Shown here: one piece after another, positions 8,648 through 10,482 of the stretch | Numbering within the stretch: the stretch's first letter is position 1 | Layout: the number at the start of each line of letters is the position of its first letter | Source: an uncultured Desulfobacterales bacterium | GTDB lineage: Bacteria; Desulfobacterota; Desulfobacteria; Desulfobacterales; B30-G6 | DNA: 64,000 bases | NCBI GenBank assembly: GCA_964633115.1 | Contig: CAZWEO010000004.1 | Location: 276 to 64,275 of the forward strand | Direction of reading: 5' to 3' | The notes under the pieces: model-generated | What the model was told of the DNA's origin: nothing | What the model saw: only the letters and a program-made list of their open reading frames with translations | The model's database searches: none | Program-made: the position numbers and the translations under genes

Positions 8648-8938
8648 TTAGCAACAGCCCGGGCCACCACACGCTGCCTGCTCCTTGCCCTTAAACCATG
8701 TCTGAATAATATAGGCGGCACATCCCACGCCCGGATTAACAGAAATGGCCGCCACGGGGCAATTGGTGGCACAGGCACCGCATTCCATACAGCCATTTTT
8801 ATCCATTATTTTTGCCTTTTGCTGCATGACTTCAAAAACATGATGCGGGCAGACGTCTTCGCAGGTGCCGCATCCGTTGCAGGTTGCTTGATCAAGTTCC
8901 AAGGTGGTTACATTGTCAAGATATCTAAAATTTTCCAT
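8648..8938 (-). CDS. hgcB: HgcB, 2x[4Fe-4S] ferredoxin of the mercury methylation pair
   Basis: 96 aa with CNGCGTCEDVCP and CMECGACATNCP cluster motifs and a C-terminal ...CGGPGCC vicinal Cys pair. It lies directly downstream of hgcA. Confidence 0.85.
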   Translation of the reverse strand: MENFRYLDNVTTLELDQATCNGCGTCEDVCPHHVFEVMQQKAKIMDKNGCMECGACATNCPVAAISVNPGVGCAAYIIQTWFKGKEQAACGGPGCC

Positions 8939-8996
8939 TCTATTTCCTTGTATTTCTGATTATCGCACGAGTCAGGAATGAAACCTCAACGTGGCT

Positions 8997-10199
8997 CTAT
9001 GAGGTAAATGCAGCCGCTACCCATCCCACCAATACCAAAAGCATGGCTCCGGCCTGGATAGGTATGGCCACCCGCATCTCCTTTTCAACGCCTGAGGGAG
9101 AGGTATAGGGGGTCGACCCCGTAAAGTTCATTGCCAAATAGGATGAAATCGTAACAATCAGTAGGATCAAAGTTACCGATTCCATCAGGTTGACCGTATT
9201 GCCCAGTCCCAACAGCATGGCGATTGCCAACACAAGTCCGGTAATCGAGCCTTTTAGGGCAAATGCCCGTACCGGTATCCATGGGAGTAGGATAGGTGCC
9301 GCGACTGCACCCGCGAAAATACCCAAGAAGCAGCCAGCCCATATAATAATCCCGCGAGTCCAGGCCATGTTTATCGAGAAAAAATCAGAACCGATACCGG
9401 AAAGCAAAAATCCGGCGAGTATACTCCAGAGCAGGTACTTACGTAAAAAATTAAGCTCCACCGGCACCAGCACCAACCGCTCCAGCAAATTGAATGTTAG
9501 CATGCGCATTCTTCTGTCGGCCTTCATATCAGCCAGGAGGAAAGCACGGATATCAGTTGTCCGAATGGGTCCCCATATCACCTTAAAGCCGCACCCGCGC
9601 CTGACCTGCTTAGCGGAAACGCCGGTTGCAGACAATTGCGGCAGTATCAGTTTCTTATGGTTGACAACTTCCTCCAGGTGGCTCTGTTTGACACGCTGAA
9701 CAACTTCTTGGCTGGAAAATGTTTTTTTTCCGGCGGCACACCAAACATTAATGCCGCGGGTGTCCAAAACTAGTATCCAGGCATCCACACCGGATAGCTC
9801 TTTGCGCAGCAAGTCAAATGTAAGTTTGTAGTTGGCTGTTACCAATACAGGTGACGTTTCATTTGCATCACCGATACAATATAAACCGGGCGCAACTTTA
9901 TACTGATCACGGTTCACCCCCAGTCTCACCTTAACCAAGCCGAAACGGTCGCTAGCAGTGAGCTCACTTTTAATTTTAGGGATCGCGCCGGCCGGAGTCT
10001 GTCTAAAGGATTCTACAAAGGGACACAGATCATAACCCGGTCGCTCAAATACACTGCTGGCAGGACCTGCTGGGGGACCGCAACAAACCTTCTCTGCAGG
10101 CTCTTGGTTATGAATAGGAAAAAATTCGCTTAGTCCATCAGACCTACCGAATGCCTTATCCGATCCGCAGCAGCTTTCTTTTGGTCGCTGTGTTTCCAT
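8997..10199 (-). CDS. hgcA: HgcA, corrinoid protein of the mercury methylation pair
   Basis: Contains the diagnostic cap-helix motif GINVWCAAGKKTF. The N-terminal soluble corrinoid-binding-like domain is followed by about 5 hydrophobic C-terminal helices. The N-terminus has CC pairs (ESCCGSD, KVCCGPP). Confidence 0.9.
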   Translation of the reverse strand: METQRPKESCCGSDKAFGRSDGLSEFFPIHNQEPAEKVCCGPPAGPASSVFERPGYDLCPFVESFRQTPAGAIPKIKSELTASDRFGLVKVRLGVNRDQYKVAPGLYCIGDANETSPVLVTANYKLTFDLLRKELSGVDAWILVLDTRGINVWCAAGKKTFSSQEVVQRVKQSHLEEVVNHKKLILPQLSATGVSAKQVRRGCGFKVIWGPIRTTDIRAFLLADMKADRRMRMLTFNLLERLVLVPVELNFLRKYLLWSILAGFLLSGIGSDFFSINMAWTRGIIIWAGCFLGIFAGAVAAPILLPWIPVRAFALKGSITGLVLAIAMLLGLGNTVNLMESVTLILLIVTISSYLAMNFTGSTPYTSPSGVEKEMRVAIPIQAGAMLLVLVGWVAAAFTS

Positions 10200-10215
10200 G
10201 GTTTCCTTCGGGGAT

Positions 10216-10482
10216 TTATAGTTTATCTGCCAGTTGCTTAAACTGTTCTAAGATGGTCCGGTCCAAACAATAGCAGGTGCAGGGTCCTTCCACTTCTCCT
10301 TTGACCAACCCAGAATCCTTTAGTATCTTTAGATGCTGGCTCACTGTGGATTGGGCCAACGGTAATAGCCCCACAAGATCACCACAGATACATTGCTCCA
10401 TTTCGTTTAGATGTTCCACAATCTGGACCCGGGCTGGATGACCGAGCGCTTTGCATAGCTTGGAAAATTTCTCTGCATTCAT
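10216..10482 (-). CDS. arsR: ArsR/SmtB-family metalloregulator
   Basis: 88 aa. LGHPARVQIVEHL...CICGDLVGLLPLAQSTVSQHLKILKDSGLV is a winged HTH with a CxC metal site in the ELCVCDL-type position. Confidence 0.85.
   Translation of the reverse strand: MNAEKFSKLCKALGHPARVQIVEHLNEMEQCICGDLVGLLPLAQSTVSQHLKILKDSGLVKGEVEGPCTCYCLDRTILEQFKQLADKL

Follow-up and report, generated by a model that had tools for sequence, protein, structure and literature searches.

The closest described relatives of the system reported here are the hgcAB loci of Pseudodesulfovibrio mercurii (Desulfovibrio desulfuricans) ND132 (DND132_1056/1057) and of Geobacter sulfurreducens (GSU1440/1441). In these loci, the corrinoid protein HgcA carries the motif G(I/V)NVWCAAGK with a strictly conserved cysteine, Cys93 in ND132 (PMC7438021, PMC7305189), and it is the substitution of this cysteine for a threonine in the cap helix that defines HgcA (Cooper et al., PMC7305189). 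For ND132, the roles of Cys93 and of HgcA's transmembrane domain have been published, together with those of Cys73 and Cys94/95 of the ferredoxin HgcB, which requires Cys73, a strictly conserved residue, together with one or more C-terminal cysteines (PMC7305189). According to Haft (10.1101/2022.07.06.499078), the reading frame of most HgcA genes, those of ND132 and GSU1440 among them, continues upstream past a UGA codon for selenocysteine as far as a PCUGP motif, and "occasional homologs" have CC in place of Cys-Sec. The ArsR-family protein linked to hgcAB in ND132, ArsR2 (DND132_1054), has cysteines at positions 26, 47, 49, 86 and 88 (Gionfriddo et al., 10.1101/2022.10.17.512643). It is co-transcribed with hgcAB and regulates both genes; the signals to which it responds are As(III)/As(V) and the build-up of S-adenosylhomocysteine (SAH), not Hg. 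In this study, we analyzed an arsR-hgcA-hgcB locus in a 64-kb stretch (64,000 nucleotides, hereafter the window) of contig CAZWEO010000004.1, from an uncultured Desulfobacterales bacterium.

Our analysis indicates that these three genes very probably form a complete and intact operon of the known mercury-methylation system, located on the chromosome of an uncultured marine member of the Desulfobacterales. The two-gene hgcAB unit, its gene order, the cap-helix cysteine and the five-helix membrane domain are the same as in ND132 and G. sulfurreducens. A first reading of this DNA (the original prediction) had named arsR, hgcA and hgcB from the letters and open reading frames (ORFs); its coordinates were all reproduced from the ORFs (Table 1), and the minus strand, on which the genes lie, was left unstated in it. 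It had also proposed, as a check, a search with hidden Markov models for hgcA and hgcB. Both equivalog models were passed by wide margins, HgcA reaching 436.6 bits with NF040863 (HgcA_corrinoid; cutoff 275) and HgcB 124.9 bits with NF040864 (HgcB_ferredoxin; cutoff 99) over residues 5-96 of its 96.

The cap-helix signature can be read directly in HgcA as GINVWCAAGK (residues 149-158), with the cap-helix cysteine at position 154. The NVWCAAGK string singled out by the original prediction corresponds to residues 151-158, and the motif is present in 120 of 120 homologues among the matches listed. In a sequence alignment, Cys154 stands opposite the threonine of GTSVLTAWAAG in the large subunit of a corrinoid iron-sulfur protein (CFeSP; structure 2h9a), and it is predicted to be the lower axial ligand of cobalt. 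The AlphaFold2 model of HgcA, built with 35 homologues and having a mean predicted local distance difference test (pLDDT) score of 75, combines a Rossmann-like N-terminal domain with five long C-terminal helices (residues 238-267, 276-307, 313-335, 338-360 and 368-399). Hydrophobic stretches at Kyte-Doolittle values of at least 1.6 occupy the C-terminal half of the protein, and together with the helices they agree with the multi-helix membrane domain proposed earlier. The best Foldseek match of the model was 9a0b_A, the integrative model of ND132 HgcA (E 1.7e-23, 51% identity over 324 columns), followed by five CFeSP chains aligned over about 150 columns (E 3e-7 to 6e-5). Profile score, cap-helix cysteine and ND132-like fold all bear out the HgcA call.

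HgcB had been described beforehand as a ferredoxin of 96 amino acids (aa) with a CMECGA motif and a C-terminal CC pair, and the protein corresponds to that description. Pfam recognizes Fer4 domains, and there are two CX2CX2CX3CP motifs (C20/C23/C26/C30-P31 and C50/C53/C56/C60-P61), the second of which holds CMECGAC. Further cysteines are C73 (in GVGCAAY), C90 and the terminal C95-C96, which means that both the conserved Cys73 and the C-terminal cysteine required in HgcB are found. The cysteines at 20, 23, 26, 30, 50, 53, 56, 60 and 73 bear identical residue numbers in ND132 (PMC7305189), whereas the C-terminal pair lies at 95/96 here and at 94/95 in ND132, and Cys90 is an extra cysteine of the window protein.

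HgcA shares its corrinoid domain with the CFeSP large subunit of the Wood-Ljungdahl pathway (AcsC/CdhE; 2h9a, 2ycl, 4djd), the two being homologous over about 140-150 residues, cap helix included, at 24-31% identity. Moreover, the sole Pfam match of HgcA was CdhD (PF03599, 56.3 bits), and a sequence search of the PDB matched CFeSP large subunits alone and no HgcA entry. On these grounds the 400-aa protein could be taken for a CFeSP-type protein, or for a non-methylating paralogue of the HgcAB-like fusion family, accompanied by a generic dicluster ferredoxin. We consider this extremely improbable, and it is effectively refuted because of the curated cutoffs: the CFeSP/acetyl-CoA decarbonylase gamma model gave HgcA 79 bits (cutoff 306) and the HgcAB-like fusion model NF043039 gave 203 bits (cutoff 285), against 436.6 bits for the HgcA equivalog. 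The fusion family has corrinoid and ferredoxin modules in common with the window and both window proteins match its model partially, but the window genes are separate and HgcB, with 57 bits, is below the same cutoff. CFeSP has a threonine at the position of Cys154, carries a [4Fe-4S] domain at its N-terminus and also a TIM barrel, lacks the five-helix membrane domain present in the window protein and has a small subunit, not a ferredoxin, as its partner. The neighboring ferredoxin, in turn, passes the HgcB equivalog and has C73 and the CC tail. The original prediction would have been overturned by best matches to CFeSP-type proteins without the motif or the membrane domain; the protein found has both.

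A part of HgcA that the original prediction did not mention is its N-terminus. The NCBIfam profile match begins at residue 73, and residues 1-72 are predicted to be disordered, with pLDDT below 50 for residues 1-43 in the AlphaFold2 model. This segment is the N-terminal extension reported by Haft, in an all-cysteine form with VCCGP for PCUGP. The Cys-Sec or Cys-Cys extension is represented by KVCCGPPAGPASSVFERPGYDLCPFV, gap-free with ND132, and the window segment AEKVCCGPPAGPASSVFERPGYDLCPFV aligns without gaps to the ND132 sequence DDAPCUGPRPDPRAGVFEKPGYAVEPFV quoted by Haft, with 14 of 28 positions matching when selenocysteine is counted as cysteine and 13 of 28 otherwise. On the basis of this gap-free alignment, C40 takes the place of selenocysteine. 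The extension contains two Cys-Cys pairs, C10C11 and C39C40; C39, C40 and G41 do not vary across 35 homologues, and two CC pairs occur in this region in 96 of the 120 closest database proteins. Because C40 replaces selenocysteine, CCG is invariant and CC pairs are common among homologues, we regard the window protein as a full-length, all-cysteine form of HgcA. ND132 and GSU1440, in contrast, need a UGA-encoded selenocysteine, and the second pair, C10C11, is a further difference from their HgcA proteins.

The product of arsR matched HTH_5 (PF01022) with 48.8 bits against 22 and NF033788 (HTH_metalloreg) with 70.3 bits (cutoff 55). Its cysteines are C10, C31-I-C33 and C68-T-C70-Y-C72. Hence, the claim of an ArsR-type regulator with a CxC site, upstream of hgcA on the same strand, stood as to family, position and C31xC33, whereas the putative site consists of CxC...CxC plus an N-terminal cysteine, not of one CxC. 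The canonical As(III) site of R773 (Cys32-X-Cys34-X2-Cys37, in helix alpha-3) was not found, as the corresponding segment, EQC31-I-C33-GDLV, has no third cysteine. Instead, going by published residue numbers, Cys10/31/33/70/72 correspond to Cys26/47/49/86/88 of ND132 ArsR2 at a constant offset of 16, and because of this shared five-cysteine set we assign the window protein, as a prediction from sequence, to the ArsR2 type. Both regulators belong to the same Pfam family and are encoded immediately upstream of hgcAB on the same strand; the window protein is 16 residues shorter at the N-terminus and has the extra C68. The gene is conserved at L001, L002 and L003 (comparison loci carry the prefix L), and Cys68 is not conserved in L003, a Desulfosarcinaceae homologue. 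The window places such a protein in the Desulfobacterales, whereas close ArsR2 homologues had been placed only in the Desulfovibrionaceae (10.1101/2022.10.17.512643).

The genes arsR and hgcA are separated by 16 nucleotides (nt), and hgcA and hgcB by 58 nt. Each gap contains a purine-rich ribosome-binding site (RBS), AAGGAA in the case of hgcB, and neither contains a terminator-like fold according to a terminator scan and RNA folding. Intrinsic terminators were likewise not significant in the hgcA/hgcB, hgcB/orf110 and post-orf110 spacers, where fold z-scores ranged from -0.76 to +1.0. From this layout we infer that arsR, hgcA and hgcB are co-transcribed in this organism, and comparative evidence and the work on ND132 suggest that ArsR would regulate them.

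The promoter region supports such a regulation. The degenerate palindrome upstream of arsR is unique in the 64-kb window, with 0 occurrences expected from shuffles, and its consensus ATCGnnTATCG-n-CGnTnnnCGAT is found upstream of arsR in 13 of 13 arsR-bearing loci (the window, L001, L002, L003, L013, L014, L016, L017, L018, L022, L025, L048 and L071). L002 and L003 have the palindrome and share no other synteny with the window. Conversely, it is absent at every examined locus without an intact arsR, including loci with hgcAB. In 7 of 7 aligned arsR-bearing loci, TTGAC(A/T) lies 17-18 nt upstream of TATCGT. The presence of the 23-bp palindrome in all arsR-bearing loci and in none without an intact arsR makes it the likely ArsR operator, predicted to lie over the -10 hexamer. 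ArsR/SmtB proteins classically repress their own genes from an operator placed over the -10 hexamer. None of the words operator, promoter and palindrome occurs in the ND132 preprint, and "palindrom" is absent also from a second paper checked for that word. A predicted, testable operator sequence for an hgcAB-linked ArsR goes modestly beyond the original prediction.

A different view is that ArsR is a mere neighbor, regulating itself or other genes, with hgcAB expressed constitutively from a promoter of its own. The regulator is indeed dispensable, as hgcAB occupies the same site in the close relatives L010-L012, where arsR is missing, and in L015 and L028 arsR is cut to a remnant of 28-31 aa without the operator; in addition, hgcA has been described as expressed largely constitutively where Hg is concerned. 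However, the 16-nt gap accommodates an RBS and leaves no room for a promoter, with no terminator in it, the tight arrangement and the operator recur in Desulfosarcinaceae loci without other shared synteny, and co-transcription and regulation have been demonstrated for the counterparts in ND132 and BerOc1. We therefore judge the neighbor explanation improbable and continue with ArsR as the putative regulator of hgcAB.

The locus itself is not an assembly artefact, because positions 7000-12000 of the window are identical, with zero differences, across contigs of four independent marine metagenome runs (word depth of about 30x in three of them and about 9x in one). The coordinates of its features are given in Table 1.

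Table 1. Features of the arsR-hgcAB locus and its surroundings. Positions refer to the window, except where a comparison locus is named.
Feature	Position	Strand	Description
orf110	8244-8576	minus	110 aa, CC-G-x-GG loop; 71 nt downstream of hgcB
hgcB	8648-8938	minus	96 aa, 2x[4Fe-4S] ferredoxin
hgcA	8997-10199	minus	400 aa, corrinoid methyl-transfer protein
HgcA transmembrane domain, residues 238-399	9003-9488	minus	AlphaFold2 helices and hydropathy
Cap-helix NVWCAAGK, HgcA residues 151-158	9726-9749	minus	Cys154 codon 9738-9740
HgcA N-terminal extension, residues 1-72	9984-10199	minus	outside the NCBIfam profile
C39C40 pair of the VCCGP motif, HgcA extension	10080-10085	minus	Cys counterpart of the PCUGP selenocysteine motif
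arsR	10216-10482	minus	88 aa, ArsR/SmtB-family winged-helix repressor
Predicted ArsR operator, 23-bp imperfect palindrome	10530-10552	no strand	ATCGCATATCG-T-CGTTATACGAT; inverted-repeat search
-10-like hexamer TATCGT	10541-10546		in the left arm of the palindrome
-35-like hexamer TTGACA, predicted arsR-hgcAB promoter	10565-10570	minus	consensus scan
Small Cys-rich ORF	10576-10785	minus	69 aa, MPFIILPNNEGKLYVPE...KHYCKHCFSCQVCSDDRCRLC, six invariant Cys
~75-aa two-helix ORF	L079 3691-3918; L082 1052-1279; L086 3693-3968; L091 242-469; L094 3965-4234		

Taking as a guide the enzyme mechanism established for the family, HgcA would be anchored in the membrane by its five C-terminal helices and would hold the corrinoid in its CFeSP-like domain, with Cys154 as the lower axial ligand ("Cys-on"). 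The corrinoid would be methylated from the one-carbon (C1)/folate pool and the methyl group passed to Hg(II), yielding CH3Hg+, while HgcB, a ferredoxin with two [4Fe-4S] clusters, would return cobalt to Co(I). Cys73 and the Cys95-Cys96 tail of HgcB are thought to hand Hg(II) in and CH3Hg+ out, and the C39-C40 thiol pair of HgcA, a cysteine form of the Cys-Sec motif that most HgcA proteins have, presumably handles metal too. An ArsR dimer on the palindrome would repress both its own gene and hgcAB, and a ligand bound in the CxC...CxC thiolate site, such as the As(III) or SAH-related signal of ND132, would lift this repression. The identity of HgcA and HgcB comes from the evidence above, whereas the catalytic and regulatory steps would follow those worked out in ND132.

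Elsewhere in the window there is a formate-tetrahydrofolate ligase gene (37599-39362, plus strand; FTHFS 697 bits), an enzyme of the C1/folate pool thought to supply the methyl group of HgcA. It is a compositional outlier, with a GC content of 0.59, and 0.77 at third codon positions, against 0.477 for the window, and a gene for a B12-binding radical SAM protein (39565-41190, plus strand) comes after it.

Several observations weigh against the reading of the locus as a functional, ArsR-controlled methylation operon. The cap segment of HgcA (residues 149-159) has low confidence in the structural model, as expected without the cofactor, and gives no structural support. The orthology of the regulator with ArsR2 rests on the cysteine positions printed for ND132, and the operator is predicted from conservation only. 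Moreover, none of the three metatranscriptome runs of the same study contains a contig of the locus, and hgcAB transcript levels have been published as poor predictors of methylation rates.

Whether Hg methylation is the selected function is debated in the field, an arsenic link and halomethane dehalogenation having both been proposed. For the window, the corresponding possibility is that the genes are true hgcAB, Hg methylation is a side reaction and the selected function is halomethane dehalogenation or an arsenic or C1 role, which would explain the control of the operon by an ArsR-type sensor and not by Hg. This concerns the physiological role and not the identity of the proteins, and it is compatible with the reading preferred here. 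According to a 2026 preprint, heterologous HgcAB dechlorinates CCl4 and methylates Hg. In ND132, hgcA is induced by arsenic and by an SAH-related signal, not by Hg, and the window regulator has the same cysteine set as ArsR2; neither mer nor ars genes lie beside the operon in the window annotation. Nevertheless, nothing in the window bears on the substrate, the thiol/selenol pairs of HgcA and HgcB typify proteins that handle soft metals and the dehalogenation claim comes from a single preprint. Altogether, we see a side-reaction origin of Hg methylation as possible, although rather unlikely.

Upstream of the arsR promoter lies a small cysteine-rich ORF that provides the leading novel lead of this analysis. 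It is preceded by an RBS (GAGGAG, 7 nt upstream), encodes 69 aa from an MPF start and has the cysteine pattern CX2CX2CX2CX4CX2C within the motif MPFxxxPGxxGKxYVPE...KKHxCxDCFSCQxCSDDRCxLC, all six cysteines being invariant. Its family comprises 333 representatives at E<=1e-3 and has no Pfam or NCBIfam match, the few names given by the sources being uninformative ("hypothetical protein"). Since the codons of the CSDDRC core vary freely among 88 homologous copies, selection acts at the protein level. A perfect 8+1+8 palindrome inside the ORF (10660-10676) was also weighed as a possible regulatory site or terminator. This reading was rejected, as the stretch encodes CSDDRC and only 1 of 34 distinct DNA versions is palindromic.

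The relationship of this ORF to hgcA was assessed in the 80 loci most similar to the window copy, a sample biased towards the window lineage. In 43 metagenome loci the downstream flank reaches 1.3 kb or more; hgcA is the next gene downstream in 15 of them, and 28 have unrelated neighbors with no hgcA beside the ORF. In addition, the hgcAB loci L002-L004 do not have the small ORF. At least four layouts occur upstream of hgcA, with arsR in between, with the ORF directly adjacent, with a two-helix ORF of 75 aa in between, or with a fusion. The fused state is found in L069 (2250-3686) and in L078 (frame containing 3501-3635), where a complete HgcA carries the small domain as an in-frame N-terminal addition, a Rosetta-stone fusion. 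The two-helix layout belongs to another hgcA lineage, in which the small cysteine-rich ORF and hgcA are separated by a conserved ORF of about 75 aa with a membrane segment predicted to form two helices (MNRISCYFERISDFAVGLFLLF...).

The 28 loci with unrelated neighbors and the three hgcAB loci without the ORF mean that the link with hgcA is suggestive and not obligatory. With this in mind, we tentatively propose that the 69-aa six-cysteine protein may be a third, undescribed component working with HgcA, a proposal that we hold as somewhat less probable than its opposite. A literature search for "hgcC" returned unrelated hits only. The gene fusion, which goes modestly beyond the original prediction, supports the candidate accessory protein, a putative member of the hgc system. 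As a module binding metal or Fe-S, the protein could supply Hg(II) or electrons or carry out the assembly of the enzyme. If this is true, such a small accessory protein would offer a new experimental handle on the route of Hg(II) or electrons to HgcA.

Comparison with related loci places the operon in a conserved chromosomal setting. Among species-representative genomes, the closest is a metagenome-assembled genome of an uncultured member of the Desulfobacterales, whose HgcA is 79% identical to that of the window; Desulfatitalea and Desulfosarcinaceae follow (53-55%). The runs containing the locus sequence are marine metagenomes. The shared backbone runs from ispH-ubiA through plsY, an optional Smr gene, DUF2914, LPP20, the small cysteine-rich ORF, an optional arsR, hgcA, hgcB and orf110 to a TrkA-type K+ channel and an FGGY kinase. 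The window as a whole is ordinary chromosome, with parA/parB, fusA, plsY, an ispH-ubiA fusion, TRAP transporters and fhs. No mobile-element genes are annotated near the operon, and base composition gives no sign of recent horizontal transfer (GC content 0.481 in the module and 0.477 in the window). Scans of all 64 kb for Rfam families and tRNAs found nothing.

Within this synteny block, the arsR-hgcAB module is gained and lost, a point that likewise goes modestly beyond the original prediction. In L010-L012, the loci missing arsR, the stop codon of the small ORF lies 4 nt before the start of hgcA. In L019 (3501-3700), the whole arsR-hgcA-hgcB module is gone and the flanks are 82-87% identical to the window. 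The small ORF of L019 ends with ...GHPCGGPGCS* and the HgcB of the window with AACGGPGCC*, and orf110 begins about 100 nt past the small-ORF stop. This junction of the small ORF with the last hgcB codons identifies its end as a deletion scar, and the L019 state is a loss of the module by deletion. Such loss agrees with published accounts of a patchy hgcAB distribution.

The gene that follows hgcB, orf110, was considered as an hgc-specific accessory gene and rejected in that role, as it occurs without hgcAB in L006, L009 and L019; in L006, it lies after a pyridine-nucleotide-disulfide oxidoreductase (Pyr_redox_2)-rhodanese gene. Its family forms 35 clusters with an invariant CC-G-x-GG loop and has no Pfam or NCBIfam match. 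The structural model is confident and beta-rich (pLDDT 86.7), with no fold match in the PDB (best E 0.35). In L011, orf110 overlaps the stop codon of hgcB by 10 nt. It is probably a neighboring gene of the backbone and not a part of the system.

Other genes of the surroundings deserve a brief record. The ispH-ubiA gene (12983-14716, minus strand) encodes a protein of 577 aa in which IspH/LytB (308 bits) is fused to a UbiA-family prenyltransferase domain; the fusion occupies the same place in L011, L013, L014 and L016. A caspase-domain (Peptidase_C14) protein gene lies beside one for a DUF4384 protein (2729-4918, minus strand), downstream of the FGGY kinase; L009 and L010 conserve the pair in this order. 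Two of the TRAP genes (23802-26462 and 26490-27683, minus strand) are unusually large, encoding a DctM protein of 886 aa and a DctQ-containing protein of 397 aa, and are flanked by two genes for DctP solute-binding proteins.

As the original prediction stated, the system is not novel, and an arsR gene that lies upstream of hgcAB, shares its transcript and regulates it has already been published. The mercury-methylation system of the window is thus a known one, and it is environmentally relevant. Finding it here is unsurprising, given at least 7992 HgcA homologues in public data (E<=1e-20) and the published arsR-hgcAB arrangement. Nevertheless, no genetic marker other than hgcAB is known for the production of toxic methylmercury by microbes, and therefore the marine Desulfobacterales population that carries this locus is a putative methylator, a flag that is useful for environmental surveys.

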